Source: a virus
Reading direction: 5' to 3' (one strand)
Virus record (IMG/VR): IMGVR_UViG_3300010158_000051
Coordinates: 13,820-77,819 of that record
DNA length: 64,000 bases
Shown here: in pieces, positions 31,676-56,569 of the stretch
How positions within the stretch are numbered: the first letter of the stretch is position 1
Layout: the number at the start of each line of letters is the position of its first letter
Translations under genes and position numbers: made by a program
Notes under the pieces: model-generated
Databases searched by the model: none
Seen by the model: the letters and a program-made list of their open reading frames with translations, nothing else
What the model was told of the DNA's origin: nothing

Positions 31676-31708
31676 GGGGCCTGAGCAAGCCCCAAACAAA
31701 AACTGCTC
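31676..31708 (+). ncRNA. H-type pseudoknot motif, copy 1
   Basis: GGGGC-CTGAGCAA-GCCCC-AAACAAAAAC-TGCTC. Confidence 0.65.
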
Positions 31709-31709
31709 T

Positions 31710-32009
31710 TTATTTTTTATCTTTTGTTACGGCTTTTTCAATTCTATCAATTGAATCACGCAATGATGATCCGCCGTTATTAAATAATTCAGCTTTGACT
31801 ATGCTGATTTCTTTTTCAATATTATCAAATCTTGCATTACCGTGTGCTAATCTTTCTACCACACCTGGATACTCTTCTGTTCCGTACCAGTCATCCATAA
31901 ACCTAGTCATAGATTGTACAAAGTTGTATAATTTATGTAAAATAAATCCAATAGATGCAAGTGCAGTTGTTGCTCCACCAATAATAAACAATATGTTAAC
32001 GGATGACAT
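31710..32009 (-). CDS. Membrane-anchored protein
   Basis: N-terminal TM segment and 'NGGSSLRDSIDRIE', a motif common near actinophage lysis genes. Confidence 0.7.
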   Translation of the reverse strand: MSSVNILFIIGGATTALASIGFILHKLYNFVQSMTRFMDDWYGTEEYPGVVERLAHGNARFDNIEKEISIVKAELFNNGGSSLRDSIDRIEKAVTKDKK

Positions 32010-32105
32010 GATAGGTTAATTATACATTGTGATTTATATCACGCAAAATTATTGACAAAAATATAGTAAATAGACTATAATGAAAATAACAAACAAGGGA
32101 GAATC

Positions 32106-32252
32106 ATGGGAAGCAAAAAGAATCAAATGAAGATCAAGGCCGCACTTGAAGTGCGTATAGCCAAGACTCCAAATAAACCAGGATTTAAAAAGCCAGGCTC
32201 AATGAACAAGAAAAAAACGGGATTTGTTAAAATTGCCCCTCTTAACAAATAG
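32106..32252 (+). CDS. Small very basic protein, 48 aa (not in ORF track)
   Basis: TTGACA/TATAAT promoter, GGGAG RBS, MGSKKNQMKIK...GFKKPGSMNKKKTG. Confidence 0.6.
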   Translation: MGSKKNQMKIKAALEVRIAKTPNKPGFKKPGSMNKKKTGFVKIAPLNK

Positions 32253-32266
32253 GGTATAATAAATAC

Positions 32267-32716
32267 ATGGAAGCATTAATTAAAGTACTAAAAGAACTGC
32301 AAGCAGATTCAATGAATATGTATGCACAATCACACGGATACCACTGGAATGTGGAAGGTCGTATGTTTAAGCAAGATCACGCATTTTTCCTAGAAATTTA
32401 CGAGGATCTATTTGATTCAATTGACGATTATGCAGAAAATATTCGTAAGTTAAATGCAAAAGCACCATTTGGATTATCTCAGCTACAAGCAAACAGCGAT
32501 TTAAAAATTAATGATTCGCTTGAATTAAGTGCCACACAAATGTATCTTGAATTAATTACTACAAATAATCATATTATTGAAAAACTAAAAAGTGCTTGCG
32601 ATGTTGCAGATGCTTCTCGTGAACAATCAATTCTTAATTTTTTTGCAGATAGATTAGCACAGCATGAATTTTGGAACTGGCAATTGACAGCATCAATTAA
32701 AACAACTATAATGTAA
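32267..32716 (+). CDS. dps: Dps/ferritin-like protein
   Basis: 'HGYHWNVEG..F...H..F...YE......D..AE.IR'. Confidence 0.9.
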   Translation: MEALIKVLKELQADSMNMYAQSHGYHWNVEGRMFKQDHAFFLEIYEDLFDSIDDYAENIRKLNAKAPFGLSQLQANSDLKINDSLELSATQMYLELITTNNHIIEKLKSACDVADASREQSILNFFADRLAQHEFWNWQLTASIKTTIM

Positions 32717-32743
32717 TTAACAGATCAACGTTCTGATTTATAT

Positions 32744-32770
32744 AAGGGGTACTAGAAATAGTACCTTTTA
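32744..32770 (+). terminator. Intrinsic terminator-like hairpin
   Basis: AAGGGGTACTA-GAAA-TAGTACCTTTT. Confidence 0.6.
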
Positions 32771-32775
32771 TGTTT

Positions 32776-32848
32776 GCCCCCATAGCTCAGAGGATAGAGC
32801 GTTGGACTTCTAAGCCAAGCGTCGTAGGTTCGAGTCCTACTGGAGGCA
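32776..32848 (+). tRNA. tRNA-Arg(TCT)
   Basis: Cloverleaf with ctTCTaa loop and GGTTCGAGTCC. Confidence 0.88.
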
Positions 32849-32849
32849 C

Positions 32850-33371
32850 ATGAAAAGAGATTATTTTAAAAAGTTATGGTCATCTATTTTGTCTAACGGT
32901 GTTAGGCAAGACGGTGATGGTAATTGGAATGTCATAAATTCTTCAACAAATAAAAGAAGAATGGAAGGCAAAGGTTCTTCAGTTGGCGGTCCTGCGGGAG
33001 AAAACCAAAGGCTTTGGATACCAGCAAAAATTATAGTTACACCAGCAGAGTTACAAGAAATCTGGGAAAAACAAGATGGGCGTTGTTATTGGTTTGGTGT
33101 ACAATTAGATTTAGGATTGCTATATAAGGATCACCCTGATTGGATGCCAAAACATCCATTAGCCCCATCTATTGATAAGATAGATGTAAATGGTGATTAT
33201 ACAAAGGAAAATATAGTAATCACCTCAAGGTTCGCAAATTTTGGAAGAAATGTGTGTGACTTTGACAAATTTTATGAAATAGTAAAAACTTTAAAAGGAG
33301 AAGATATATGTCAGCAAAACCAGTACCAGCAGTTACAACCGCTCAACCAGGAACAGCCGCAAGACTATTAG
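32850..33371 (+). CDS. HNH-like endonuclease (degenerate)
   Basis: 'QDGRCYW...PSIDKID...YTKENI......N..RN'. Confidence 0.55.
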   Translation: MKRDYFKKLWSSILSNGVRQDGDGNWNVINSSTNKRRMEGKGSSVGGPAGENQRLWIPAKIIVTPAELQEIWEKQDGRCYWFGVQLDLGLLYKDHPDWMPKHPLAPSIDKIDVNGDYTKENIVITSRFANFGRNVCDFDKFYEIVKTLKGEDICQQNQYQQLQPLNQEQPQDY

Positions 33372-33841
33372 AAATTGCAAAGTCACAAATTGGCGTTGTA
33401 GAAGGTCCAAAAGATAATGAAACAGATTACGGCAAGTTTACAAAGCATGATTTTCAACCTTGGTGCGGAAGTTTCTGCATGTGGGTTGCTAATCAAGCAA
33501 AGGTAACAATTCCTAATACAGTTTATACTCCATCAGGAGCAGATGCTTTTAAGAAAAACAAAAAGTGGTCAGATGCCGCAACAGCAACTCCAAAGCCTGG
33601 AGACATTGTTTATTTTGACTTTGTTAAAGGCGGGAATGCAGTAGAGCATGTAGGCATTGTTGTAAAAGACAATGGTGATGGAACTGTAACAACTTATGAA
33701 GGAAATACAAGTCCAGAACATAAAGCTACTGGAAGTCAAGCAAATGGCGGAGAAGCAGCAGAAAGAATTCGTGCTTACAAAACAAATAAGCGAGGACTAC
33801 TACAATTTATTGTAGGCTTCGGTCATCCAGATTATAAGTAA
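33308..33841 (+). CDS. CHAP-domain endolysin/amidase
   Basis: 'PWCGSF', 'PGDIVYFD', 'HVGIV' and 'EGNTS'. Confidence 0.9.
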   Translation: MSAKPVPAVTTAQPGTAARLLEIAKSQIGVVEGPKDNETDYGKFTKHDFQPWCGSFCMWVANQAKVTIPNTVYTPSGADAFKKNKKWSDAATATPKPGDIVYFDFVKGGNAVEHVGIVVKDNGDGTVTTYEGNTSPEHKATGSQANGGEAAERIRAYKTNKRGLLQFIVGFGHPDYK

Positions 33842-33851
33842 AAGGATAAAA

Positions 33852-34178
33852 ATGGAATACGATCCATCAAATGAAGAGCATCGTGAAGCAATGGAGCACC
33901 TTATAGAAGAAGGTGCTGCAATTCTTGACGGGATTGATGAAGATGGGGAACCAGTCTATAAGTTTGACATGAACGTACTAGAAGAAGTAATGCCAGAACT
34001 ACATCAGGCTATGATGGATGATATGGACAAAGTTCTTATTGATTTATATCAAAAAGGGCTTATTGAGATAAGTTATGATGAAAACCTTAACGCTCAAATG
34101 TCCGTATCTTTAGAAGGCAGGCAGGCTTTGGAAGATGCAGGATTTGACATGGATGGTTCTGAAGAAGAAGAATATTAA
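33852..34178 (+). CDS. Acidic hypothetical protein
   Basis: AAGGA RBS. Confidence 0.65.
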   Translation: MEYDPSNEEHREAMEHLIEEGAAILDGIDEDGEPVYKFDMNVLEEVMPELHQAMMDDMDKVLIDLYQKGLIEISYDENLNAQMSVSLEGRQALEDAGFDMDGSEEEEY

Positions 34179-34208
34179 GGTATAATTAACCATAAGGCGG
34201 TGATTTAA

Positions 34209-34448
34209 ATGGATAACAACCAACAAGTAGCTGGTGCAGGAACAGAACAACCAGCAACAGCAACTCCAGTAACAGAACAAGCAGGCTCAGGTAATACACT
34301 TGCAGCTCCAGCAGTTTCTAACCTAGGAGTGCATAACCCAAGCACAATGAATACAGGAAGCCCATTCACAGGGAAAGATGTTTCAATGACAACACCACAG
34401 TATGCAGGTGGACCAATTGCAACAACTGAAGCAGGCTCACACGCATAA
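34209..34448 (+). CDS. Low-complexity small protein (possible virion internal protein)
   Basis: GGTATAAT promoter and TAATG coupling to the next gene. Confidence 0.55.
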   Translation: MDNNQQVAGAGTEQPATATPVTEQAGSGNTLAAPAVSNLGVHNPSTMNTGSPFTGKDVSMTTPQYAGGPIATTEAGSHA

Positions 34449-35077
34449 TGAATAGCAAACAATTTTTTAATGAAGTTGTTAGCATGATCAAAGCTATTGG
34501 TACTTCATCTTCGGCTAACGAGGAACGAGATGAAAGATCAGTTGAAAACTATGTTAGAGGAAATGCTAACACAAATACAAATTCAAGTATAGGAGGTAGT
34601 ATAGTGTCAAACACAACAGAACCAGATCCACAAGGAGATATTGCGGTAACAAAGTCTTTTTCAAACGCAACAGGTGGTCCACTGATTAATCAGGAAACTC
34701 GTCCAACAGACGGAGTTGCAGTGGCATCAGCACCAAATAATGATGGAGTTGTTCCAAACAACGCAACATTTGATAGCTCAGCAACTTCAGCTATTGCTCC
34801 AACATCTGCACAGATGGCAGAAGCAACAGAAGAAACAATTTCAAAGGCTGCAACTTGCAAGGAATGCGGACAAGCACTTCCAGTAGCAAAAGCAGATGAA
34901 ATTGCAAAAGCAGCAACATGCCAAGATTGCGGAAAGTCAATGGATTTGTGCGATTGCATGGGCAAAGCAGTAGATGAAAAAGAATCTGCAGCGGAAGCAG
35001 CAAAAGAAACTCCAGAAGATGAAAAGGCGGAAATGAAGAAGTCCCTATGGGGCGGAGCATTTGCACCACGTAAGTAA
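34448..35077 (+). CDS. Probable internal head/scaffold-like protein
   Basis: Repeated xxK[A/S] sites, two CxxC motifs and C-terminal KSLWGGAF. Confidence 0.5.
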   Translation: MNSKQFFNEVVSMIKAIGTSSSANEERDERSVENYVRGNANTNTNSSIGGSIVSNTTEPDPQGDIAVTKSFSNATGGPLINQETRPTDGVAVASAPNNDGVVPNNATFDSSATSAIAPTSAQMAEATEETISKAATCKECGQALPVAKADEIAKAATCQDCGKSMDLCDCMGKAVDEKESAAEAAKETPEDEKAEMKKSLWGGAFAPRK

Positions 35078-35099
35078 TTAATTATATATACGTATATAT

Positions 35100-35134
35100 A
35101 TGAACAAGGACGGTAACCCCGTCCTTGTTCATTT
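35100..35134 (+). terminator. Strong hairpin/terminator
   Basis: ATGAACAAGGACGG-TAACC-CCGTCCTTGTTCAT-TT. Confidence 0.7.
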
Positions 35135-35147
35135 CAGAAAGGAAAAA

Positions 35148-35516
35148 ATGAGAGTAATAGTTTTTGGAAGCAAAGATTGGTCAGATTACAATGATCTAAT
35201 CCGTCAACTTACAGTATTGATTGATGACCGTAAACATTTCTATCCTGAAGATACAGAGTACACTTTTGTTCACACAGGTATGCGGGGTGCAGAAAATATG
35301 GTTACAGAATACATTGGTAAGACAGAAAAGTTTCTCAGACAAAAAGGTTATAAGATCAAAGAAGAAATAATCAAAGATAAATCTGGTTTAGCAGATCATT
35401 CTTTAATTGAAGCTATGCCTGATTTTGCCCTTGTTTTTGGAGACTCACCTAGAAATAGGTCATGTGTAAAATTGTTAGAAGCATATGCAGTTCCACACAG
35501 ATATATTAAAAAATAA
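35148..35516 (+). CDS. SLOG/YspA-like (DUF2493-like) protein
   Basis: 'MRVIVFGSKDWSD...VHTGMRGAE'. Confidence 0.6.
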   Translation: MRVIVFGSKDWSDYNDLIRQLTVLIDDRKHFYPEDTEYTFVHTGMRGAENMVTEYIGKTEKFLRQKGYKIKEEIIKDKSGLADHSLIEAMPDFALVFGDSPRNRSCVKLLEAYAVPHRYIKK

Positions 35517-35582
35517 GCTTGACACAAGCGTGTATAAACTGATACAATAGATTAACACTATACTTACTATTAAAGGAATAAA

Positions 35583-35888
35583 ATGACAGATATTGAACCA
35601 TTTGGAAGCTTGCTTTTGATTGAAGAAATTGAGCAGGCAGATAGAAAGACAGCCTCTGGACTTGTATTATCCGCATCAGTTCTTGATAGCGAATTAAAGC
35701 GTGGAAAAGTAATTGCTGTTGGTACAGGTGATTACGATAACGCAGGGAACAAACACGAAATACCCTTGACATTCGGGGATGTAGTAATATATAATGAAGG
35801 TAACGCCACTGAAGTAACAGATGCTTCAGGAAGTAAATACTACTTTATTAACTGGCGACATTTATTTGGAAAAGAAGGTAATATCTAA
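35583..35888 (+). CDS. groES: Co-chaperonin GroES-like protein
   Basis: 'IEPFG...KTASGLVL...GKVIAVGTG...GDVVIY'. Confidence 0.9.
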   Translation: MTDIEPFGSLLLIEEIEQADRKTASGLVLSASVLDSELKRGKVIAVGTGDYDNAGNKHEIPLTFGDVVIYNEGNATEVTDASGSKYYFINWRHLFGKEGNI

Positions 35889-36118
35889 TGACAAAGATTG
35901 TATTAAATTATGATAAAGCACATAGTTTTGTAAACAAGAATAAGAAGAATGGCTTCTTCTGGGATGGTTACACCATTGTAAAATGGACACCAGGCTCCAA
36001 CGGTTACATGCAAAAAAATGGCATGTTTCGAAATAATCAATGGGGTTATTCCTCACGATATGAAGTCACTTCCTCTGGCACATGGGAATTAAACGACAAA
36101 TATGCCAGATTTATTTAG
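35888..36118 (+). CDS. Hypothetical protein
   Basis: Operon coupling. Confidence 0.6.
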   Translation: MTKIVLNYDKAHSFVNKNKKNGFFWDGYTIVKWTPGSNGYMQKNGMFRNNQWGYSSRYEVTSSGTWELNDKYARFI

Positions 36119-36428
36119 TCAATTAGGTTTAGATGAGCAAGATGTTAAGTGGTATCACTTAGCAGCATGCAAAGGTATGCCAATTGATTGGTTCTACGAT
36201 AATTATGAAGCAGATAAAGAATTAGCTAAACAAGCTGATCAAGTATGTTTACATTGTCCTGTAATTAAAATGTGTCACGCACAAGGCGTGATTAACAAAG
36301 AAAAAGGAGTTTGGGGCGGGGTCTACATGGACCTTGGAAGACCAGACAAACAACATAATTCACATAAAGATCCTGAGATATGGAAGCAGTTAAAAAAGGC
36401 ACATGGTAAAAATATCGTACACGGTTGA
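36102..36428 (+). CDS. whiB: WhiB-family Fe-S transcription regulator
   Basis: W...AAC...CxxC.....C...GVWGG. Confidence 0.9.
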   Translation: MPDLFSQLGLDEQDVKWYHLAACKGMPIDWFYDNYEADKELAKQADQVCLHCPVIKMCHAQGVINKEKGVWGGVYMDLGRPDKQHNSHKDPEIWKQLKKAHGKNIVHG

Positions 36429-36681
36429 TATGGCAAAAAAAATAAGGGATGTTAAAGTTCCTGTCAAAGGCCTTATCCTAGATGTTAGAGCAAGACCAAA
36501 CTATCTTGCTTTAACTGTGTATGAAAGCAATATCATGGAATATAACGAAAGTCAACGAATGCAACTGATGGAGTATTTGTTAATGATTAGAAATCTTATC
36601 ATGTCTTATGGAACACCATGTGAAATAGAGGGGATGAAATATACTGATGAGCAAGCAAGAAAACAACGAAGAGCTACCTGA
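36403..36681 (+). CDS. Hypothetical protein
   Basis: Operon packing. Confidence 0.55.
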   Translation: MVKISYTVDMAKKIRDVKVPVKGLILDVRARPNYLALTVYESNIMEYNESQRMQLMEYLLMIRNLIMSYGTPCEIEGMKYTDEQARKQRRAT

Positions 36682-36898
36682 TTTAACTGTTACATATGTC
36701 TACATTCCAGATGAGGACATATATGGAACTCTTATCGCCCAAAATAGTTACTATTCTATAGTAGAATATTTTGATAATGGTGTAGGTTATCGAATTGAAG
36801 TTGACAATGAAGATTTTTTTGTTGTTGATGAATTTGGAATAAGTTACATTGAAGAAACTGAAGACTACGAAGATGAAGAAATGGAAGAAGATTTATAA
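36647..36898 (+). CDS. Acidic hypothetical protein
   Basis: Operon packing. Confidence 0.55.
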   Translation: MSKQENNEELPDLTVTYVYIPDEDIYGTLIAQNSYYSIVEYFDNGVGYRIEVDNEDFFVVDEFGISYIEETEDYEDEEMEEDL

Positions 36899-37128
36899 TG
36901 CAATGTTTTAGTTGCGGAAAGCCAAAAAACGAGCTTCACCCTAAAAAGTCCGATATAATTAATGGAGTGACACTATTAATGTGTCAAACCTGCATAGATG
37001 CTAAATTTGAGCCTAGATGGGTTATTATTCTGAGTGGTAGGCAGAATGGCGTAGATTCAGTAAAAGATTATATTGTTAAGCGACGTTATATAGGCAGAAT
37101 TATTGATGCCGAAGAATTGATCGCTTAG
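36898..37128 (+). CDS. Zinc-finger protein
   Basis: CxxC...CxxC. Confidence 0.6.
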   Translation: MQCFSCGKPKNELHPKKSDIINGVTLLMCQTCIDAKFEPRWVIILSGRQNGVDSVKDYIVKRRYIGRIIDAEELIA

Positions 37129-37141
37129 AAAAGAGGGTAGT

Positions 37142-37450
37142 ATGCTAAAAATTAGCAATGACATGGAAGAAATTATTAATCAGGACAACGCTGTTGTTTA
37201 TTTTAGTGCTGAATGGTGCGGACCATGTAAGCAATTAAAACCACAATATGCTAAAGCTGCGGTAATTGATGCAGACACTATGTATTATGTAGTAGATGTA
37301 GATAAGGTAGGATCAGAGTATTTAAATCAGTATGGTATTCAAAGTATTCCCCAAATTTTTGAAATGAATAAGGGATTAATTAACAAAAAAATTATAGGAA
37401 AAACGTCAGATGCTATTCTGGCAGAAATGGGTAAAACAAATGCAGCGTAA
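37142..37450 (+). CDS. trxA: Thioredoxin
   Basis: WCGPC and 'YGIQSIP'. Confidence 0.93.
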   Translation: MLKISNDMEEIINQDNAVVYFSAEWCGPCKQLKPQYAKAAVIDADTMYYVVDVDKVGSEYLNQYGIQSIPQIFEMNKGLINKKIIGKTSDAILAEMGKTNAA

Positions 37451-37985
37451 TAAGTTAATGATTGCTATTGCTTTAGGACTTACTATGGTAAGTACATCAG
37501 CGATTGCAGCAACTACAGCAAAGAAACCAGATTGGGTTGTTCAGGATAAGAAGGTAACTCCAGGAGCATTGAATCCTTCAGTTACACAATCAAATATTGC
37601 TACAACAGTTTGTAAGTCTGGATGGACAGCAACAATTCGTCCAACAGTAACGTACACAAACAAGCTTAAAGATACACAACTTAAGACAACCTATAAGTCT
37701 TATGTTGCTATTTGGGGTGCAACTTCAGGAGGATATGAAGAAGATCATTTAATCTCACTTCAACTTGGCGGAGATCCATCAAGCGAAAAGAACCTTTGGC
37801 CTCAACCATATGCTGACAATGGTGCACGTAAAAAAGACGTTGTAGAGACTGCTCTAAAGCGTTTGGTATGTGCAGGTACACTTAAGTTGGCTGATGCTCA
37901 AAAGGCTATCTTAGATTGGCCTACAGCCTATAAAAAGTATGTTACAGCAGCAGATGCTGCAAAACCAGACACATCAGATAACTAA
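37440..37985 (+). CDS. Secreted HNH-type nuclease-like protein
   Basis: Signal peptide MQRNKLMIAIALGLTMVSTSAIAA and 'YEEDHLISLQLGG.....NLWPQ'. Confidence 0.7.
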   Translation: MQRNKLMIAIALGLTMVSTSAIAATTAKKPDWVVQDKKVTPGALNPSVTQSNIATTVCKSGWTATIRPTVTYTNKLKDTQLKTTYKSYVAIWGATSGGYEEDHLISLQLGGDPSSEKNLWPQPYADNGARKKDVVETALKRLVCAGTLKLADAQKAILDWPTAYKKYVTAADAAKPDTSDN

Positions 37986-37999
37986 TTAAAGGGATAGAA

Positions 38000-38545: not shown

Positions 38546-38600
38546 CACCCGTTACGATAATCCTGATCAGGGATAAAATAAACTAAACTATAGGAGAAAA

Positions 38601-49966: not shown

Positions 49967-50117
49967 TTTTTTCCTTTGTTAGTTGGGTTGGAGGTTTTAT
50001 TATACCAGAGGGGTCTGACATAAACTTAGGTGCTAGTTCTTACTTACGACATTGGGCTAGAACTCTAGCAAACTGCCCCTGTTTCGTTATCCCCTATTAT
50101 AGCGTAGGGGTCTGACA

Positions 50118-50345
50118 TTATGCCTCGTATTTGGGCATACCTACCCTGACTTCTTTGTGATTTACAGCACTTAGGATTTTACCCCCAAAGGCTGCAATAA
50201 TCTTTGCCAGTTTTATTTCATCTGCACAGGTGATCTCAACCTGCATATTTTCTAGCATCTCATATTCAATGCCATAGTTCAAGCATTTGCTCAAACCATT
50301 AGACATACGAGCTTTTGACGGGACTTCAACTATTGCAACAGCCAT
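50118..50345 (-). CDS. Hypothetical early protein
   Basis: TAATG coupling. Confidence 0.6.
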   Translation of the reverse strand: MAVAIVEVPSKARMSNGLSKCLNYGIEYEMLENMQVEITCADEIKLAKIIAAFGGKILSAVNHKEVRVGMPKYEA

Positions 50346-50947
50346 TAGTATGCACCTTCTTCTACTCTATCAACATCATAGTCATTGACGCTAATCTCTG
50401 AACCAAAAGAGTCAATAGTTAGGTTATTGCGAACCATATCTTCAATGTCATAGTCGCCGTCTGCCATATCAACTTCAATAGTCATATCAACACGAACCCA
50501 AGCGGTTACTTCAATTTCCTTAGTTAGTGGAACATCAAAGATTTCTGCAATTTGTGAAAGTGTATCTTGCTCTGATGAGTCTGCATAAACTTCTTCAAGC
50601 AAAGTGCGTAGTTGGCTTTCTTTACGATAGTATTCGTTCATTTTTGTTTGATAAGATTTATCACGATAAACCAAAGCACGAACATCTGACTCTGTATAAG
50701 TTTCTGTTCGCTCAACATCATTTTCAGTCCAGTTGAGAGTCATTGTTTGAGGTGCGGTTGTTGTTTCCATAATTTGTTCTTCTTTCTTTTCGGTTGGGTA
50801 TATTGTAGCATCTAGGACTGACAAAAGTGTTAGGTCGCCCTGACACTCAAAACAGTTTTTATCTCTAAGTGTATTTGATTTAGTTGTAATTTCAATTAGT
50901 GCATCACAAATTGAACACACATAATCTTTTTTATACCAGTTAGTCAT
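50345..50947 (-). CDS. Hypothetical protein with N-terminal CxxC..CxxC and a probable internal start at 50770
   Basis: Leaderless ATG after the 50954 promoter. Internal promoter at 50802 and a purine-rich RBS before METTT. Confidence 0.6.
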   Translation of the reverse strand: MTNWYKKDYVCSICDALIEITTKSNTLRDKNCFECQGDLTLLSVLDATIYPTEKKEEQIMETTTAPQTMTLNWTENDVERTETYTESDVRALVYRDKSYQTKMNEYYRKESQLRTLLEEVYADSSEQDTLSQIAEIFDVPLTKEIEVTAWVRVDMTIEVDMADGDYDIEDMVRNNLTIDSFGSEISVNDYDVDRVEEGAY

Positions 50948-51047
50948 ATCGCAATTATAGCGTATAGGACTGACATAGTTCTACTTACCCGTCAGTAGTT
51001 CCAGTATTTGAGACGCTCCCGTAATGTGATAATGGTCACGTAATGGG

Positions 51048-51069
51048 CGACACGCCCGACTGCGTCGGC
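51048..51069. repeat. Dispersed 21-22 bp GC-rich element CGACACGCCCGACTGCGTCGGC
   Basis: Copies at 51048, 52441, 53821, 55247 and 56013. GACACGCC-only copies at 48892, 53760, 57396 and 57714 (reverse). Confidence 0.9.
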
Positions 51070-51073
51070 CCGC

Positions 51074-51107
51074 TGCATATTTATGCATTGCAATGCATAT
51101 TTATAAA
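51074..51107. promoter_or_regulatory. Tandem ARG (ArgR) boxes
   Basis: TGCATATTTATGCA-N6-TGCATATTTATAAA with 20-bp period. Second pair at 56055-56088. Confidence 0.6.
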
Positions 51108-51119
51108 TTAGAAGCTTTG

Positions 51120-51193
51120 CGATTCCAACGGGACTTGAACCCGCAACCTCTACCGTGACAGGGTAGCGATCTAACCAATTGATCTATGGAATC
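51120..51193 (-). tRNA. tRNA-Asp(GTC)
   Basis: GATTCCA/TGGAATC acceptor, CTACC-ctGTCac-GGTAG, GGTTCAAGTCC. Confidence 0.92.
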
Positions 51194-51197
51194 TTGC

Positions 51198-51224
51198 GAG
51201 CAGTTTTAATTCTTGCTCAGGAAT
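51198..51224 (-). ncRNA. Pseudoknot motif, copy 2
   Basis: ATTC-CTGAGCAA-GAAT-TAAAAC-TGCTC. Confidence 0.65.
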
Positions 51225-51230
51225 ATTTTT

Positions 51231-52280
51231 TTAATTTGTAAGAGCGAGAACTTGCTTTACAATTTTATTTTTTTCTGCTGTAACAACTGGGTCAAATCCA
51301 CTTGCACCAGCCATTAGTGAATCGCCATTACCCTTGCGAGCAGTGCGATAGTAATCAAGGCGTTCTGTGAGTGCATTTACAACACCCCACGCTGTGCCCT
51401 TGATATTTGCATTGGTAGGTGAGTTATGATACAACTCATCAACAAGGAGAACTTTATTCTCCCATTTCTTGATTGAACCCTTAGCGTCCTTTTCAGGCTT
51501 AGCATAAATTGAGTTTACAATCTTTGAGAACTGAGCGTTAGTTACCTCACGAGAGAATAATTCTTTCGCCTGTAACTCAAACTCGTCCATGTAAGCAAAA
51601 GTAAGACCAAGAGCCTCACGAGCAGCAGCAATTTTTCCATCTACTGTTTGCGTGTGGCGAATCTTGAAAGATTGCTTAGCCTTTTTCATTGCAAGGTTGA
51701 GAGTGTTTTGGCACATAACACGAACTGGAGTGATTGCAGATTGAACCGCAACTGAACCATCGTGTGAAGTCCAAACGATGAGATAAAGTTTTGTCTCATC
51801 TGCTGCACCATTAGGGTCAAGAATCATAGTGCGGGGAATTGACATTGAGCCATAGACCACACGACCACTCTTTAGAGAACCCGCAGATTCCCAAACTACA
51901 TCAGGATTTCCATCATGAATATTATCTGCAAACGCAAACAAATCTTCATTCTGAACTGTTTTGTAGCGTGAGCCTACAACTGAGAGAACATCTTTTTGTC
52001 CTGCTGTTGTTGGATTATCACGAACTACAAGATAGTTATCTGAAACTGTTGTGTAGTTAGGTTGTAGCAAATCTGAAACAGATTCTAATTGCACATTCCA
52101 ATTAGAGAGATTAGCACCCTGCAACATTTGTGCTGTTGTAACAGCCTCATCTTGCGTGAATACTTTATTGGCGAAAGAGTGCCAAGCGGGATTAGTGCGA
52201 AGATTTACTGCAAGCGTTGCAGAACCATCGTTGATTTCGGATTGGTGAGCAAGATTGCCCACAGGTGATTGAACTGACAT
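51231..52280 (-). CDS. DUF932 (TIGR03299-like phage/plasmid) protein
   Basis: 'PAWH', 'YKTVQNED.F', 'SHDGS....ITPVRVMCQNTL' and 'GTAWG..NA.TE..D'. Confidence 0.88.
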   Translation of the reverse strand: MSVQSPVGNLAHQSEINDGSATLAVNLRTNPAWHSFANKVFTQDEAVTTAQMLQGANLSNWNVQLESVSDLLQPNYTTVSDNYLVVRDNPTTAGQKDVLSVVGSRYKTVQNEDLFAFADNIHDGNPDVVWESAGSLKSGRVVYGSMSIPRTMILDPNGAADETKLYLIVWTSHDGSVAVQSAITPVRVMCQNTLNLAMKKAKQSFKIRHTQTVDGKIAAAREALGLTFAYMDEFELQAKELFSREVTNAQFSKIVNSIYAKPEKDAKGSIKKWENKVLLVDELYHNSPTNANIKGTAWGVVNALTERLDYYRTARKGNGDSLMAGASGFDPVVTAEKNKIVKQVLALTN

Positions 52281-52421
52281 AGGTTTTTCCTTCTTTCTAT
52301 TTGATTGTTAGACTTATTATAACAGGGGGCACTGACATTTGTCCATTTTGAATCGTAAGATAACTAAACATTTGTCCATAATGTCCAAATTTGACAGTGT
52401 GAGAAATCTCACACGTAATAG

Positions 52422-52430
52422 TTATCCACA
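52422..52430 (+). promoter_or_regulatory. DnaA box TTATCCACA (second copy TGTGGATAA at 55966-55974)
   Basis: Perfect 9-mers, both inside intergenic hubs. Confidence 0.55.
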
Positions 52431-52734
52431 CGTAATACACAGACACGCCCGACTGCGTCGGCATTTTTTTGCGGAAATGTCAAGGCAACACGCCGTATTT
52501 ATTTATGAAATACAAAATAAAAAATAGATAGCACTACAGCGATGGCCCCATACACCAATACATACGCTGCAATGCTATCCATTTTATTTTACCCCTCTTT
52601 AAATAAACTCCGTTAGATCTCGATCAGAAATTTCATTTACGTCAACACCTTCAGATTCAGCTATAGCTTCCCATAGGTCCTCTTCAGTAAAGTCACCGTC
52701 AGGATGCCATTCGGCCAATACTTCAAATAAACCT

Positions 52735-53028
52735 TTACTCATAGTCTTCACCTGCAAAGTCATCTTGACACCATGCATCTAAGTGATGCGATTCAATTAA
52801 TGCCCATGCTGGAGCACTATTTTTTCCACGCCAAGATACGCCTTCAGGCAATTCAATTAAACGCTCCTGGCTATCTTCCCAATATGCGTCAATTGCATCT
52901 ATGCAAGGTTGCACCATAGAGTACGGGACGGGTGGGTAATGGTTACCTCGCAAGTGCATTGCAATTGCAGATTCCATATCTAGGCCCAAGGTACCATCCG
53001 CTAATTCATTTGCTAGGTTGCTTCCCAT
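52735..53028 (-). CDS. Conserved actinophage-type hypothetical protein ('HLRGNHYPPVP')
   Basis: Operon packing. Confidence 0.7.
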   Translation of the reverse strand: MGSNLANELADGTLGLDMESAIAMHLRGNHYPPVPYSMVQPCIDAIDAYWEDSQERLIELPEGVSWRGKNSAPAWALIESHHLDAWCQDDFAGEDYE

Positions 53029-53030
53029 TA

Positions 53031-53294
53031 TTAATTACCTGCCAATTCAATAACGGCGTGAGAGCCATCTGCGTTGATACGATATAGTTCTTGTGCAATT
53101 TCCTCACGAGATAAGCCTTTACCTATCAAGTCAAGCACTGCGGATTTATTCATTGCAATAAACGCACCTTCGGGGAGCATTGCAATTCTTGGCATGAAGG
53201 GAGAAGTTGGAGAAACTTTAGAAATAAACTTTACGCCATCCACTTCAAATGGAAAAGAATTCCAGCCAGTTGTGTTTAGTTCATGCATTTTCAT
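53031..53294 (-). CDS. Hypothetical early protein
   Basis: TAATG coupling. Confidence 0.6.
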   Translation of the reverse strand: MKMHELNTTGWNSFPFEVDGVKFISKVSPTSPFMPRIAMLPEGAFIAMNKSAVLDLIGKGLSREEIAQELYRINADGSHAVIELAGN

Positions 53295-53581
53295 TAGTTA
53301 TTTTCACTTTCTACTTGTTGGGTAATTGTATCAAATTCACGGATTTCGTCTGCAATATTAGACATAAGTTGCTCACCTAGGCAAGCATATGCAACGGTTG
53401 TAGCGGTCATAGCGGAGAGAGTTGCAGAATACCGAAACATTAGTTCTGCAATATGATTTAGTTTGCTGAAGTCACCTTCACACAATTCCATTGCCATATC
53501 ACGGGCTGACGACATTACTTCATCTGAAGTAAGGGCTTCGGCTGAAGCCTGCTGGATTTTCATTGCAGTTGCAATAGACAT
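53294..53581 (-). CDS. Hypothetical early protein
   Basis: GAGG RBS and TAATG coupling. Confidence 0.65.
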   Translation of the reverse strand: MSIATAMKIQQASAEALTSDEVMSSARDMAMELCEGDFSKLNHIAELMFRYSATLSAMTATTVAYACLGEQLMSNIADEIREFDTITQQVESENN

Positions 53582-53697
53582 TAGTTTGCCTCTTTCTTGT
53601 TGGGAGTTGTAATTGTAGCAGATAGCACTGACATTGCTTCCACTGTTGATTGCTTGCGTGTCTCTTCGACATGCTTCTTGAATTCATCTAAGTTCAT
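53581..53697 (-). CDS. 38-aa early peptide containing an internal promoter
   Basis: GAAAGG RBS before ATG 53697. Confidence 0.55.
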   Translation of the reverse strand: MNLDEFKKHVEETRKQSTVEAMSVLSATITTPNKKEAN

Positions 53698-54106
53698 GAG
53701 TTTACCTTTCTTGTTGTTGATAATGGAAGTATAGCAGGTTAGACTGACATATTCAACACGACACGCCGTAATTCTCACGTAATGAGACACGTAATCATGT
53801 GACAAATCTCACACGTAATGCGACACGCCCGACTGCGTCGGCCCGTGTCCGTTATGTCCAAATTATTTACGCATAAAAACGCAAATTTTAGATCAGCTAT
53901 TCAAATTTATTTTTATATTTGCGTTTGCGATTATATTTTTTCTTTGACGGAATTGCAGTCGCAGCATTACTGCGACGCAACTCTTGAATTCGCTTTACTT
54001 TTTCCATAATTTTATTCCTCACACTTGCCACAGTAGCAATTTCCTAATTCTTTATTATTGCACTCCTCTTTAGTTAGTGCAGGTTCCCATTTACGCATTA
54101 CATCGC

Positions 54107-54316
54107 TCATCGCTCTACGACCCTTCTGCCTTCACGATAAAAAATTTTGGTATAGCATTTACCTGACGGGGTGTAGAGATTTACAGTAGAATACTTATCT
54201 GCAAATCCCCAGTCAATAAACTTTGCAAACTCTTTGTGTGCTTGCAATTCATCTGAGTATTGTCCTGACCAATAAGGTGAGGTCTGCTCATCATAGGTTA
54301 CTGTAATTTTATACAT
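54107..54316 (-). CDS. Hypothetical early protein
   Basis: GAGG RBS. Confidence 0.6.
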   Translation of the reverse strand: MYKITVTYDEQTSPYWSGQYSDELQAHKEFAKFIDWGFADKYSTVNLYTPSGKCYTKIFYREGRRVVER

Positions 54317-54318
54317 TG

Positions 54319-54504
54319 TTAAGCCTCGCTTCCTGAAAATAATTGGTGGTATTCCGCAACCTCATCAGCGGGAATGTTGTAAGGGTTGCAATCGCAATAA
54401 TCAAAATCATAGTCGCCGTCTGGAGATACCCAGCCAGTTACGCCTTGACCATAGCAATCTGAGCAATTTACGATTTGCTCTAACGCATTTTTTATATTTG
54501 ACAT
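54319..54504 (-). CDS. Small Cys-containing early protein
   Basis: CxxCxGxG...CxC with GAAAGGA RBS. Confidence 0.6.
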   Translation of the reverse strand: MSNIKNALEQIVNCSDCYGQGVTGWVSPDGDYDFDYCDCNPYNIPADEVAEYHQLFSGSEA

Positions 54505-54612
54505 TTAGTTGTCCTTTCTTGTCTGACATTTACATTTTGTTATTTCTATTGTATCACCTGCCACTGACACAGTGGCAAGCGTATCACAATTAGAACAGAT
54601 AAAGATTTCCAT
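54505..54612 (-). CDS. 35-aa Cys peptide (not in ORF track)
   Basis: MEIFICSNCDTLATVSVAGDTIEITKCKCQTRKDN, TAATG-coupled. Confidence 0.5.
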   Translation of the reverse strand: MEIFICSNCDTLATVSVAGDTIEITKCKCQTRKDN

Positions 54613-54845
54613 TAGTTATCTTCAATCTGAACGCAAATTGTTGCGTAAAAATCTGAACCCCAAGTAGAAACTTTTTCGGGATTATAAGTTGGTCGGACTC
54701 TTACAGTATAAGCCTGAAAGTTTGAGCCATACCATACATTATCACGCTTTTCTGCGGATTGGATTATTCCATCTCTATGTCGCCCTAGTGAGCGATAGTA
54801 TTTACCTTCTAATAAGGTTTCTATGTCGTATTTATAAGTTGCCAT
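54612..54845 (-). CDS. Hypothetical early protein (small beta-barrel-like)
   Basis: AAAGGAAG RBS and own TGTCAG promoter. Confidence 0.65.
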   Translation of the reverse strand: MATYKYDIETLLEGKYYRSLGRHRDGIIQSAEKRDNVWYGSNFQAYTVRVRPTYNPEKVSTWGSDFYATICVQIEDN

Positions 54846-56037
54846 TTTAGCACTTCCTTTTCTTTTTTGTTATGCGATTATTGTATCAGAGGGGTCTGAC
54901 ATTTTGGGGGATTTAGAGGGTGTGTCTAAATTATTTATTTGTGATTTATCTCACATTAGAGGCAATTTATGCAATTGCACCCTTTAGATGAGAATAGATA
55001 CTTTAGCAATTCCTTGCGAGTATAAGCGTCTAATCCATAAGACGATTTAACACCACCATTGTGGTATTCGTGGACTATTGTTGAGAATAGTGTTTCATTT
55101 AGTGTAGTCATTTTGACCACCTTTCTTTATTTTCTAATACTGGAAGTATAACAGATAAAACCGCTACTGTCTAGTATACTGGGTAGTAGTCTCACTATTT
55201 GGAGCGTGAACTTTGTGAGAAAAATCACATCTTACGTAAGCGTGTGCGACACGCCCGAGTGCGTCGGCATTTTTTTGCAGCTGTTACACTGCAAAAATTT
55301 TATTTGAAATCTTTAAAAATTTCTTCAACAATTTTTAATTGCTCATCATTAAGATGATCCAATTGAATTGCATCTGCAAAACCAAAAATATCTTTTTCCA
55401 TTATTCAACCTCTTTCCATTCAAAACAATAAGAATCTGAAACAAAATTATTTTTTATTACATTGTCAAAAATTGATAACGCTTGGTCATCATTTTCTGCA
55501 TCAATGTCTAACCAAACACCAAATGTGTATTTTTTCATTAGAGGGCTCCCTCTTGAAATAAACCAATTTCAATGTCTAGCATTTCAGCGGGAGTGGCTTC
55601 GGATAAATCTACCCAACCAGCACCCTCTTCATTTATACGAAAAATTTCAATGTAACCCATTATTTTACCCACTCACTTATTTCATAGTAGGACATAAATT
55701 CTGCAAGAGTCATTAGACCCTTGTATTCATTACAGGATACGCAGAAATTTTCATTAGCGTATTGTGAACAGAAACAGCAAACAATTTTATTTGCATACTC
55801 TACAGGGAGAGTGTTTAGTGTAAATGTAGTCATTTTAGACCACCTTTCTTTAGAGGATTTCTTTACCTCTTGTTTTTCTTTATACTGTAATTATAGCAGG
55901 GGGGTCTGACATTTACTGACGGGTAACTATGACAAATCGGACATTTCAAAATGTGACTTACATCATGTGGATAACTTGAGCGTAAAATTTAATGTGACTT
56001 AAGTCATGTGGACGACACGCCGTCAGCGTCGGCACTT

Positions 56038-56053
56038 TCGAACAAACGTTCGA
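56038..56053. promoter_or_regulatory. Actinobacterial LexA (SOS) box
   Basis: TCGAAC-AAAC-GTTCGA, a perfect match to TCGAAC-N4-GTTCGA. Confidence 0.8.
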
Positions 56054-56090
56054 ATGCATATTTATTCATGATCGTGAATAAAAAAGCTGC

Positions 56091-56118
56091 GAGCAGTTTT
56101 ATAACTTACTCAGGTTAT
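56091..56118 (-). ncRNA. Pseudoknot motif, copy 3
   Basis: ATAAC-CTGAGTAA-GTTAT-AAAAC-TGCTC. Confidence 0.65.
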
Positions 56119-56123
56119 TTTTT

Positions 56124-56306
56124 TTATTCGTGTTTTAGATTTTTGTAGACTTCTTCGTGAAATCTATCGCTATCAAATTTCTCGTTATCATCTGCGAACA
56201 TCTGAGAAAAATCATAGACTAAATCTTCGAATACTTGTTGCGGAATTTCATCACCATAAGAGTTTAGAATTTCTGCTGTTGCTACATAGTCTTTGCGTGT
56301 CATCAT
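56124..56306 (-). CDS. Conserved small phage protein ('MTRKDY...A......F..DN..FD..RF')
   Basis: AAAGGA RBS and a widespread phage motif. Confidence 0.75.
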   Translation of the reverse strand: MMTRKDYVATAEILNSYGDEIPQQVFEDLVYDFSQMFADDNEKFDSDRFHEEVYKNLKHE

Positions 56307-56332
56307 TTTTTTATGTGTCCTTTTCTTTTTAG

Positions 56333-56503
56333 TTACTTGCTTGTTTTTACCATAGCAAAACGGCGAGAGCCATTTGCTAAAACTAAACTAACGCGAGTTA
56401 CCTTATTAGAAATCGGGGAGAAAGAAGCGATACGACCTGTAACGCCTGTCTTGCTAGTAGTGAAGAGGTCTCCGATTTGGTATGTGTATCCTGATAGTGT
56501 CAT
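56333..56503 (-). CDS. Small SH3/KOW-like protein, paralog B (not in ORF track)
   Basis: MTLSGYTYQIGDLFTTSKTGVTGRIASF..., with AAAGGA RBS. Confidence 0.7.
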   Translation of the reverse strand: MTLSGYTYQIGDLFTTSKTGVTGRIASFSPISNKVTRVSLVLANGSRRFAMVKTSK

Positions 56504-56540
56504 TCTGTTATGTCCTTTTCTTTTTGTTGGGTTTTGTGTT

Positions 56541-56569
56541 GAGCAGTTTTAATAGACTTGCTCAGGTCT
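56541..56569 (-). ncRNA. Pseudoknot motif, copy 4
   Basis: AGAC-CTGAGCAA-GTCT-ATTAAAAC-TGCTC. Confidence 0.65.

Follow-up and report, generated by a model that had tools for sequence, protein, structure and literature searches.

Short structured RNAs that recur within one phage genome raise the question of what they are and what they do for the transcripts that carry them. Such an element occurs four times in the stretch of viral DNA analyzed here (64,000 nucleotides, referred to as the window), where a sequence-only reading had placed it at 31676-31708 on the plus strand and at 51198-51224, 56091-56118 and 56541-56569 on the minus strand. All four copies are present, and their coordinates and strands are right. 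The pattern CTGAGYAA-N(3-21)-AACTGCTC has exactly these four matches in the window and was matched in none of 100 dinucleotide shuffles of the window (0 expected by chance); the whole 77.8-kb record contains no copy beyond the four. A covariance model trained on 120 copies and run on the window scores the sites at 43.1 (copy 2), 42.4 (copy 3), 34.8 (copy 4) and 12.4 bits (copy 1), the last score being lowered by a linker insertion. There is no fifth credible match in the window, the next one reaching 9.1 bits with an E value of 1.6.

Table 1. Pseudoknot copies and adjoining features in the window
Feature	Position	Strand	Details
hsp20 gene, upstream of copy 1	31194-31628	+	PF00011, E 3.9e-18
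Stable hairpin between hsp20 stop and copy 1	31645-31675	+	AUCUGC..GCAGAU, inner CCCC/GGGG; sequence reading
Pseudoknot copy 1	31676-31709	+	Pattern, covariance model, folding
Copy 1 P1	31676-31680 with 31689-31693	+	GGGGC/GCCCC
Copy 1 loop	31681-31688	+	CUGAGCAA
Copy 1 A-rich linker	31694-31703	+	Exceeds usual length by 5 nt
Copy 1 P2 3' strand	31704-31708, paired to 31683-31687	+	UGCUC; U-run next
tRNA-Asp(GUC), directly downstream of copy 2	51119-51193	-	
Pseudoknot copy 2	51197-51224	-	Pattern, covariance model, folding
Copy 2 P1	51224-51221 with 51212-51209	-	AUUC/GAAU
Copy 2 loop	51220-51213	-	
Copy 2 linker	51208-51203	-	UAAAAC
Copy 2 P2 3' strand	51202-51198	-	UGCUC
DUF932 gene, upstream of copy 2	51231-52280	-	phrog_1221; PF06067, E 3.7e-54
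Pseudoknot copy 3	56090-56118	-	Pattern, covariance model, folding
Copy 3 P1	56118-56114 with 56105-56101	-	AUAAC/GUUAU
Copy 3 loop	56113-56106	-	CUGAGUAA
Copy 3 linker	56100-56096	-	AAAAC
Copy 3 P2 3' strand	56095-56091	-	UGCUC
60-aa ORF, upstream of copy 3	56124-56306	-	Stop 56126-56124, 5 nt before copy 3
Pseudoknot copy 4	56540-56569	-	Pattern, covariance model, folding
Copy 4 P1	56569-56566 with 56557-56554	-	AGAC/GUCU
Copy 4 loop	56565-56558	-	
Copy 4 linker	56553-56546	-	AUUAAAAC
Copy 4 P2 3' strand	56545-56540	-	UGCUCA; 6-bp P2
6-bp hairpin between 53-aa ORF stop and copy 4	56587-56571	-	
53-aa ORF, upstream of copy 4	56590-56751	-	Copy 4 starts 20 nt past its end

Fold and covariation

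The motif is almost certainly a compact RNA pseudoknot of the H type, 27-34 nt long, in agreement with the earlier proposal, and both of its helices covary in several hundred copies from outside the window. The first helix, P1, comprises 4-5 bp of free sequence that are always paired, with a C-G pair closing the loop and A-U or U-A as the second pair. Next come an 8-nt loop, C-UGAGYA-N, and the return strand of P1; a short linker with AAA plus C at its end then leads to UGCUC(A), which forms the 5-6 bp of the second helix, P2, with the loop. Pairs 3-16 and 4-15 of P1 are formed in 120 of 120 sequences, with four and three pair types, and in other contigs four of the six pairs of P2 (UGAGYA/UGCUCA) show compensatory changes. 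The compensated variants (GGGCA/UGCCC, UAAGCA/UGCUUA, GAGUA/UACUC, GGGUA/UACCC and GGACA/UGUCC) include matches from a model that held no P2 pairing information. Furthermore, the AAA of the linker is invariant, though the search pattern had fixed just two of its three A's.

The window copies conform to this description: their P1 stems differ in sequence and yet pair, and the complementarity claimed between loop and tail, GAGCA against UGCUC, is found, with a U-G wobble retained by GAGUA in copy 3. Nested folding selects P1 in copy 1 (minimum-energy fold) and P2 in copies 2-4; P1 and P2 can coexist solely as a pseudoknot. As judged from mini-pseudoknots of the coremin and luteovirus types, the minor groove of P1 probably holds the AAA, and the single loop C probably spans P2.

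Distribution and genomic context

The motif is not peculiar to a single phage with four copies; it forms a very widespread family, present in very many unrelated phages, in prophages and in some bacteria. Carriers number more than 117 among viral contigs and about 100 among bacterial genomes, the latter spread over many phyla, and cultured phages have it as well (Roseophage SIO1, Arthrobacter phage Amigo, Synechococcus S-H35 and Lactobacillus phig1e). The sequence-only reading could assign it to no known family, and in an Rfam search it reaches the threshold of none; one Lactobacillus prophage copy gives a sub-threshold match to GP20-b. Among described elements, those nearest to it are the coremin-type xrRNA pseudoknots found in eukaryotic RNA viruses, together with the 5' half of Rfam GP20-b.

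Placement in sense orientation downstream of a gene, as noted earlier, holds for all four window copies (hsp20, DUF932 before tRNA-Asp, and two small ORFs), and the upstream neighbor is on the strand of the motif in 151 of 175 cases. The distance from stop codon to loop has a hard minimum of 9 nt, which places the beginning of P1 at least 5 nt past the stop; 9 nt is also the mode (32 of 120), and 78 of 120 copies fall within 9-13 nt. The distance to the next start is broadly spread (median 65 nt), and the upstream genes are mutually unrelated, 100 proteins forming 67 clusters. Many copies end gene groups and are followed by gaps of 60-220 nt, and 18 lie between convergent genes.

That the motif is itself a processing signal, as the sequence-only reading suggested among other roles, is conjectural; instead, processing devices separate from it often come after it. 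A tRNA is found within 20 nt downstream in 19 of 213 copies, starting 3-13 nt off in most of them, while no copy in the viral set has a tRNA just ahead of it. Six type III hammerheads have their cleavage site 6-12 nt past the motif, DUF2800 RNA is also among the downstream neighbors, and a U-run occurs 0-4 nt past UGCUC in 25% of copies versus 10% of controls.

Within the window, hsp20 ends 47 nt ahead of copy 1, which has a perfect sigma-70 promoter for the next unit further on (32052-32081), and copy 2 lies 6 nt past the DUF932 stop and 4 nt ahead of tRNA-Asp. The ORF upstream of copy 3 matched no Pfam family, and roughly 240 nt of non-coding sequence follow this copy; the next ATG after copy 4 (56503) is 38 nt downstream. 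The promoter after copy 1 and the long non-coding stretch after copy 3 are consistent with an end-of-unit context.

Candidate functions

Among the functions raised by the sequence-only reading, a 3' exonuclease block or end-marking element seems to fit this context best, and our tentative preference is that the motif serves transcripts as a mechanical barrier or a 3' end-cap. It would be a gene-end module in transcripts of phages, prophages and other mobile elements, with the knot sitting just out of reach of the ribosome terminating on the upstream ORF, so that translation would never melt it. A 3' end would be formed a few bases past the knot, through a stop at a U-run, RNase P action on an adjoining tRNA or the cut of an adjoining hammerhead, and the knot would be the last folded structure left on the upstream mRNA, where it would limit 3' exonuclease attack and separate the translated message from the downstream RNA. 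After cleavage by RNase P or a hammerhead, the knot would remain attached to the upstream piece, and the few bases behind it would be too little for most 3' exonucleases to grip, as expected from established enzymology. Arguing against an end-cap, P1 is often weak (AUUC/GAAU, for example), whereas the stems of classical 3' exonuclease blocks are longer and rich in G+C; 75 of 213 copies have none of the listed downstream features, and in 73, which lie inside operons, the next start codon is no more than 60 nt away. The conservation of P2 across phyla, unexplained by a simple cap, points to a specific partner or strict tertiary contacts.

Moreover, coremin-type knots are documented as barriers to 5'-to-3' movers and not to 3' exonucleases. 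A coremin-like roadblock to such movers (RNase J-type exonucleases, 5'-end-tracking RNase E, and readthrough or sliding ribosomes) that shields downstream RNA appears unlikely, even with a sequence and architecture near those of the Watson-Crick-type coremin, a staller of Xrn1 and ribosomes. The shielded RNAs would be the tRNA, the ribozyme, the DUF2800 RNA or the next cistron. Structured RNAs are indeed often directly downstream, but cleavage by RNase P or a hammerhead would separate the knot from the RNA to be protected, and the 18 copies facing a convergent gene have nothing downstream to protect. When the stop codon occupies the A site, a P1 that begins 5 nt past it is at +12 from the first P-site base, which is the geometry of frameshift stimulators, and the stiffness of such knots against 5'-side unwinding comes from the A-rich linker on P1, as established for frameshifting knots. 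On the other hand, coremin needs a second hairpin, hp2, to resist Xrn1, and such a hairpin is no commoner at the motif than in controls (15% of motif copies versus 18% of controls); furthermore, the motif is present in bins of beta- and gamma-proteobacteria, which are generally without RNase J.

The nearly constant P2 next to a free P1 is the pattern of a recognition element, and GP20-b, with the same layout and another P2 sequence, hints at specificity classes. Nevertheless, we regard it as quite unlikely that the motif offers a universal host machine a specific binding site or a mimic, or that it is a site for a phage-encoded RNA-binding protein: the top protein family occurs in at most 14% of 172 loci (about 4-7 kb on each side), and a phage-specific protein fits poorly with carriers in very distant phyla. 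As a mimic, the motif would be a miniature tRNA acceptor arm, a coaxial helix of 10-11 bp followed by A and often CC(A), recognized by RNase P, RNase Z or the CCA-adding enzyme. UGCUC is followed by A in 65% of copies, then by C in 46%, then by C or U, with G avoided, and the TYMV acceptor pseudoknot has the loop-plus-3'-strand topology of the motif, which speaks for such mimicry. However, ACCA, read from listings, follows in roughly 14 copies, a small minority, and aminoacylation identity elements are not evident.

A pseudoknot-type intrinsic terminator, with P2 stacked on P1 in the place of the hairpin before a U-tract, is a very doubtful candidate. Copy 1 (UGCUCUUUAUUUUUU) and copy 3 would fit, as would the enriched U-runs and the many copies at gene-group ends; however, three quarters of copies have no U-run, and co-oriented tRNAs, ribozymes and RBS-plus-ATG within a few bases need read-through.

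That the motif is a new, very small self-cleaving ribozyme is highly improbable. Its approximately 16 near-invariant bases across phyla, its phage and mobile-element setting with several copies per genome, and its direct contact with hammerheads would suit one, and other ribozyme classes often adjoin hammerheads (twister-sister, pistol and hatchet were found so), but 27-30 nt with about six unpaired bases is below any natural self-cleaving class in size, and a hammerhead or RNase P site next to it would be redundant.

A preQ1-I-like riboswitch, a recoding signal (frameshift or readthrough) and a DNA-level promoter or operator are all disfavored and together have hardly any probability: against the preQ1-I-like topology and the fact that the commonest downstream tRNA is tRNA-Asp, a queuosine tRNA, the preQ1 model has no match at E<=10, the base between P2 and P1, at the ligand-pairing position, is variable, and the flanking genes have no common function or metabolic theme, which makes the ligand binding suggested earlier unlikely; stop-codon spacing is that of recoding signals, but stop-to-loop distances of 9, 10, 11, 12 and 13 nt all occur, so that the conserved bases are in no fixed reading frame, and tRNAs or convergent genes lie downstream; and TGAGCA with TGCTCA is an inverted repeat, but strand-specific covariation of two helices and a variable linker length suit folded RNA, not duplex DNA, and a promoter would fire into convergent genes.

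Comparison with known pseudoknots

Judged by sequence and layout, the closest described element is the Watson-Crick-type coremin xrRNA. The coremin motif (xrRNA_C) is known from RNA viruses of plants and fungi; its Watson-Crick type (xrRNA_WCC, e.g., in Sanxia picorna-like virus 5) stalls Xrn1 and scanning ribosomes and causes -1 frameshifting, including in an E. coli screen (PMC6546385, PMC10520033, PMC10321173). Shared features are a first hairpin of 3-4 bp with a pyrimidine-purine (C-G) loop-closing pair and A-U/U-A second pair, a GUC/GAC stem common in both, AAA in the linker (essential in coremin; several motif copies have a literal GUUAAAC), a loop antiparallel to the post-AAA bases with a GAG/CUC(A) core, a single-base first loop, and the usual place right after the last ORF. 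The motif differs in its 8-nt loop (C-U-G-A-G-Y-A-N), with G at position 3 where the YGAD/YGNNAD rule wants position 2, in a P2 of 5-6 bp instead of 3, with an extra C-U-G between AAA and CUC, and in the second hairpin, obligatory in coremin and not general here. Canonical coremin forms with 4- to 7-nt loops are not enriched in motif loci. The hosts of the motif are DNA phages and bacteria, which are without Xrn1, and its own barrier role is putative.

GP20-b RNA (RF03003) has been proposed as a cis-regulatory motif and is located upstream of scaffold genes in phages (Weinberg et al. 2017, PMC5737381). The Lactobacillus prophage copy, itself upstream of a GP20/PF06810 scaffold gene, scores 25.4 bits (gathering score 36.2) and aligns with CCGCA/UGCGG as P2, GuC..GgC as P1 and UAAAA as linker, which indicates that the 5' half of GP20-b shares the layout of the motif. 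GP20-b differs in P2 sequence, in a second hairpin with an A-rich tail and in its restriction to one gene context in Firmicutes prophages, and its model matched none of the four window copies.

The likeness to preQ1-I (RF00522) noted earlier stands as far as both are small H-type pseudoknots of similar size with an A-rich 3' linker followed by C-U, and is topological only. The motif has no conserved ligand-pairing C, the matching segment being one variable base, and lies after genes, whereas preQ1-I is found in leaders of queuosine genes. The -1 frameshifting pseudoknots of luteoviruses and enamoviruses (e.g., BWYV, 28 nt) are comparable in size, likewise have a first loop of one or two bases and a last loop rich in A, and stand 5-8 nt from the decoding site as the motif does; however, the motif follows a stop codon and not a slippery heptamer, has no overlapping -1 ORF, and is not fixed in frame relative to the stop. 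At the 3' end of MALAT1, a compact A-rich ENE triple helix lies immediately upstream of the tRNA-like mascRNA, and an RNase P cut makes the 3' end. Fold and size differ and MALAT1 is a eukaryotic nuclear RNA; the analogy to the motif is one of shared logic only.

Fold of the motif and search for a catalogued family

The sequence-only reading had placed four dispersed copies of an H-type RNA pseudoknot in the window, and at all four sites the sequence reads exactly as it described, with hsp20 (PF00011), a DUF932 gene (PF06067) and two small ORFs upstream, each on the same strand as the motif. In a pattern search of the window, CTGAGYAA-gap-AACTGCTC gave four matches, compared with none in 100 dinucleotide-preserving shuffles, and a covariance model built from 120 copies recovered the same four and nothing else credible (43.1, 42.4, 34.8 and 12.4 bits; best non-copy match, E 1.6), the low score of copy 1 being due to a linker that is 5 nt longer. 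The window spans bases 13820-77819 of a 77.8-kb IMG/VR virus record, in which no copy besides these four was detected.

The consensus is NNWC-CUGAGYAN-GWNN-(N)N-AAAC-UGCUC-A, where the first helix (P1) has free sequence and the second (P2) forms between loop and 3′ tail. Both inner variable P1 pairs are formed in 120/120 aligned sequences, with three to four pair types each, and the loop-closing pair is always C-G; a few G-C flips of this pair appear among weaker covariance-model matches. Changes in P2 are rare and compensated (G-C to A-U, A-U to G-C, C-G to U-A or U-G), and a sixth P2 pair, between the loop U and the base following UGCUC, is present in 80 of the 120. The linker AAA is invariant, though only two of the three A's were set by the search pattern, and the P1 return strand plus linker measure 10 nt in 89/110 viral copies among the matches listed. 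In a tail sub-class, AAAA(A)-GGCUCA replaces AAAC-UGCUCA; five pairs are kept, with P2 now UGAGC/GCUCA, and the C preceding P2 is missing.

Because the first scans had demanded loop-tail complementarity, a model of P1 only was built and run on 0.94 Mb. Each match with an altered loop had a matching tail, including GGGCA/UGCCC, GGGUA/UACCC and GGACA/UGUCC, the last of which alters the G-C pair of P2 that is invariant elsewhere. Nested folding of copy 1 yields P1, and that of copies 2–4 yields P2; both helices can therefore coexist only as a pseudoknot. The proposed H-type fold is thus borne out by covariation of both helices, also with the P1-only model, and is established as far as comparative analysis allows. 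When any loop-tail pair was admitted in the same layout (structure-only scan), about 165 of the 244 matches carried GAGCA, GAGUA or close variants, and the remainder lay near the shuffle level (39). Tertiary contacts within so small a knot may account for the constancy of P2; alternatively, P2 may be recognised by a universal partner, for example RNase P, the CCA-adding enzyme or the ribosome.

The motif, which the sequence-only reading could not assign to a known family, stays below the threshold of every Rfam family: at gathering threshold (Rfam 15) the window yields six tRNAs only, and a permissive search (E<=10) of 541 nt around copies 3 and 4 gave nothing at the motif, preQ1 families included. 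The suggested likeness to preQ1-I aptamers is one of topology only. The preQ1-I model (RF00522) has no match in either search; preQ1-I has a conserved ligand-pairing cytidine in the P2-P1 loop, where the motif has a single variable base, and lies in the leader of queuosine-related genes, whereas the motif follows unrelated genes. A riboswitch is disfavoured on these grounds.

The nearest catalogued candidate is GP20-b (RF03003), itself a candidate motif, as yet uncharacterised, that lies 5′ of phage scaffold genes (PMC10690425; PMC5737381). It scores 25.4 and 17.7 bits on Lactobacillus prophage copies, below its gathering threshold of 36.2, and has no match at window copies in the E<=10 search around copies 3 and 4. 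Its stem aligns on P2 of one Lactobacillus prophage copy, and the layout of hairpin, UAAAA and tail is shared, but its P2 sequence differs from that of the motif. No description of the motif was found in the literature by literal sequence or keyword searches. With its excellent comparative support, the motif stands as a genuine and widespread RNA family that is still uncatalogued.

Coordinates of features at and near motif copies. L-numbers are loci elsewhere that carry motif copies.
Feature	Location	Strand	Remark
Copy 1	window 31676-31709	+	
Copy 2	window 51197-51224	-	
Copy 3	window 56090-56118	-	
Copy 4	window 56540-56569	-	
Extra stable hairpin	window 31645-31675		between stop codon and copy 1
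Extra stable hairpin	window 56571-56587		between stop codon and copy 4
Sigma-70-type promoter	window 32052-32081	+	perfect TTGACA-18-TATAAT, ~340 nt past copy 1
Ferritin-like gene (PF00210)	window 32267-32716	+	downstream of this promoter
Six tRNA genes	window 29357-30064, 32776-32849, 51119-51193		Asn, Met, Gly, Gln, Arg, Asp
Type III hammerheads	L142:7541-7595, 7270-7323	-	
Type III hammerheads	L007, L009, L137, L222		
DUF2800 RNA	L023:285-445	+	Rfam RF02960
DUF2800 RNA	L161:5432-5592	+	Rfam RF02960
DUF2800 RNA	L183:5051-5208	-	Rfam RF02960
DUF2800 RNA	L232:1598-1754	-	Rfam RF02960
GGCUCA sub-class	L029:3325-3345, 3675-3695		
GGCUCA sub-class	L048:2947-2967		
GGCUCA sub-class	L060:4529-4549		
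GGCUCA sub-class	L075:147-167		
Arthrobacter phage Amigo locus	L245, NC_041949.1 39834-39952		

Distribution in phages and bacteria

A search of phage metagenomes, proposed together with the motif, revealed a large family well beyond a local repeat. The same pattern occurs at at least 117 loci in viral contigs, of which 110 distinct copies were kept after a stem filter among the matches listed, and a stricter pattern, applied to one prokaryotic genome per species, gave at least 118 loci, with the stem present in about 100 among the matches listed. Bacterial carriers comprise Saccharibacteria and other CPR lineages; Lactobacillus, Ligilactobacillus and Lacticaseibacillus isolates; Calothrix and other cyanobacteria; and Aminicenantes, Clostridia, Coriobacteriia, Alistipes, Brucella daejeonensis and Polynucleobacter. 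Where annotated, the prokaryotic neighbours are prophage head modules (terminase, SPP1 portal, Mu-F, PF06810 scaffold), early or anti-defence-type genes (ArdA, DUF3768, KilAC antirepressor, DUF932) and a plasmid-like relaxase context. Near-identical copies in Aminicenantes and Eubacteriales bins (L155, L187, L189 and L231) adjoin a cytidylyltransferase-like gene (PF01467), with a convergent gene opposite, and look chromosomal rather than prophage-borne.

Among cultured phages, the sequences of Roseophage SIO1 (3′ of the ribonucleotide reductase gene), Synechococcus phage S-H35 and Arthrobacter phage Amigo carry the motif. In Amigo the SSB stop codon is followed by the pseudoknot, 2 nt, tRNA-Gly and tRNA-Val, and this phage would be convenient for experiments. 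BLAST matches were obtained in Lactobacillus phig1e, Staphylococcus StB12, two crAss-like phages, Lentibacter ICBM1-3 and Clostridium phiCT19406B. A BLAST query that carries one stem variant has little power to detect the motif; one 35-nt copy gave no match in the E. coli genome collection and five weak matches in the plasmid collection.

The window phage derives from freshwater lake metagenomes and has a G+C content of about 40%. Among cultured phages, those of the Streptomyces BE cluster are its nearest relatives (DnaE-type polymerase 56% and DUF932 protein 51% identical), which suggests a low-G+C freshwater actinobacterium as host; these relatives are without the motif, and Jay2Jay has no copy. 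In phages related to the window phage, a knot comes after one gene or after a group of two or three, and a gap of 60–220 nt often comes next.

Position at gene ends and proposed function

Among the matches listed (217 copies considered), the motif and its nearest upstream gene share a strand in 151 of 175 cases. Spacings between stop codon and first loop base show a sharp minimum of 9 nt, which is also the mode (32/120), and 78 of 120 copies lie at 9–13 nt; the minimum means that P1 starts at least 5 nt past the stop. Computed from this minimal spacing, the first P1 base lies at +12 from the first P-site base when the stop codon occupies the A site, and about +12 is where the ribosome ceases to unwind mRNA. 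Any nearer to the gene, the knot would be melted by the ribosome. Copies 1 and 4, with an additional hairpin between stop codon and knot, are the two window copies away from the minimal stop distance. Spacing to the next start codon varies widely (median 65 nt).

Downstream features were tallied over 213 distinct copies among the matches listed. A same-strand tRNA begins within 20 nt in 19 of them, and is tRNA-Asp in 14; in the viral set most linked tRNAs begin 3–13 nt past the knot, and no tRNA immediately precedes one. Copy 2 is 4 nt from the start of tRNA-Asp, the only one of the phage's six tRNAs with a pseudoknot in front. Six copies are followed by a type III hammerhead with stem III starting at the base following UGCUC and cleavage 6–12 nt downstream, one of which exceeds the Rfam threshold (RF00008, 50.5 bits, L142). 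In at least four copies the DUF2800 RNA (158 nt, 140–160 bits), an uncharacterised Rfam motif, begins 1–2 nt past the knot, and the latter may be its unrecognised 5′ part or partner. Eighteen of the 213 knots abut the stop of a convergent gene. The hallmark of an intrinsic terminator is a stable G+C-rich hairpin with a U-tract directly 3′ of it; a U-run lies within 16 nt of 25% of copies vs 10% of control gene ends (2.5-fold), and a terminator scan gave no call at the window copies. Downstream of copy 1 are a U-run and a possible convergent ORF, then the promoter of the next plus-strand gene.

A gene-end barrier or cap is a plausible function in view of the fold, the ribosome-sized exclusion zone, the adjoining 3′-end-making devices and the position at unit ends. 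The knot would survive translation of the upstream ORF, end at or near the RNA 3′ terminus, and protect or insulate there. The function is assigned to the upstream message mainly since, on cleavage by RNase P or a hammerhead, the upstream RNA would keep the knot and a short tail behind it. Lake metatranscriptomes contain short contigs on the window stretch in four runs. Two span copy 4; a 151-nt piece starts at the base following UGCUC of copy 4 and another stops within copy 2. Assembled contigs cannot show RNA ends.

A stimulator of −1 frameshifting or readthrough, which calls for a slippery site or leaky stop at one set spacing and an extended ORF beyond it, is disfavoured: the spacing would fit, but all distances of 9–13 nt occur, and tRNAs, convergent genes or a separate RBS-plus-ATG come next. 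A nut/boxA reading is disfavoured too: UGCUCUUUA in copy 1 is identical to the rrn boxA core, but in most copies the bases that come next are A-C-C or others, and P2 pairing takes up the segment. In a search for a shared partner protein, no family occurred in more than 14% of loci (2,393 ORFs clustered, 172 loci, about 4–7 kb on each side); the 100 upstream proteins alone fall into 67 clusters. A hairpin or sigma-70 promoter is disfavoured, with no phage RNA polymerase evident, a spacing wrong for −35/−10 and copies oriented toward convergent genes.

New here are the stop-codon exclusion distance, the counts of adjacent hammerheads, DUF2800 RNAs and tRNAs, the GP20-b link and the cultured carriers. 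If confirmed, the motif would be among the most widespread small structured phage RNAs (hundreds of unrelated viral contigs, about 100 bacterial genomes listed, cultured phages), and a portable part of ~30 nt to stabilise or insulate transcripts in many bacteria. In uncultured phages it can serve as a marker of where genes and transcription units end, and it offers a testable reason for the placement of phage hammerheads and tRNAs, namely as makers of mRNA ends.

Comparison with coremin RNAs

The closest described parallel is coremin (xrRNA_C), the Xrn1-stalling RNA of plant and fungal RNA viruses. Rather doubtfully, the motif might be its bacterial counterpart: a sequence-defined mechanical knot of ~30 nt exactly at the leading edge of the terminating ribosome, in phages, prophages and mobile elements of many phyla, which would stop ribosomes, RNase J/RNase E and 3′ exonucleases and give stable mRNA ends with abutting tRNAs or hammerheads. 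If so, phages would have a general system of transcript punctuation, and many of their hammerheads would be given a first proposed biological role; confirmation would tie the coremin-type roadblocks of eukaryotic RNA viruses to bacterial gene expression.

Coremin elements are 20–40 nt long, stall Xrn1 and scanning ribosomes, and cause −1 frameshifting at ~20–30%; a frameshift screen in E. coli also selected them (PMC6546385, PMC10520033, PMC10321173). They consist of a 3–4 bp hairpin with a C-G (or U-A) closing pair and a YGAD or YGNNAD loop, and a second hairpin (PMC10520033, PMC10321173, PMC6546385). The spacer of 8–10 nt contains an essential AAA, then CUAC, or CUC in the Watson-Crick type (xrRNA_WCC), where loop GAG pairs with CUC(A) after GUUAAA (PMC10321173). 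Common to coremin and the motif are the C-G closing pair (5′ pyrimidine, 3′ purine; 120/120 aligned copies of the motif), an A-U pair in second position, a GAG/CUC(A) core and the AAA, which is invariant in the motif together with the C behind it; several phage copies literally contain GAC-GUUAAAC.

The motif differs in a spacer with three extra bases and in a longer P2 of 5–6 bp, and canonical coremin forms (4–7-nt loops) are not enriched. The coremin loop has G at position 2 and a last base that is not C (PMC10520033), whereas the motif loop, C-U-G-A-G-Y-A-N, has G at position 3 and a last base A>U>C>G. Coremin needs its second hairpin directly 3′ of the spacer for Xrn1 resistance (PMC6546385, PMC10520033, PMC10321173); a second hairpin within 6 nt of the motif is found in 15% of copies vs 18% of controls, and a 3′ helix of any kind (tRNA, hammerhead stem, small hairpin) in a subset only. 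Since these two defining features, the loop rule and the second hairpin, fail, the motif is best filed as a related variant of coremin and not as a member, which by analogy may work as coremin does.
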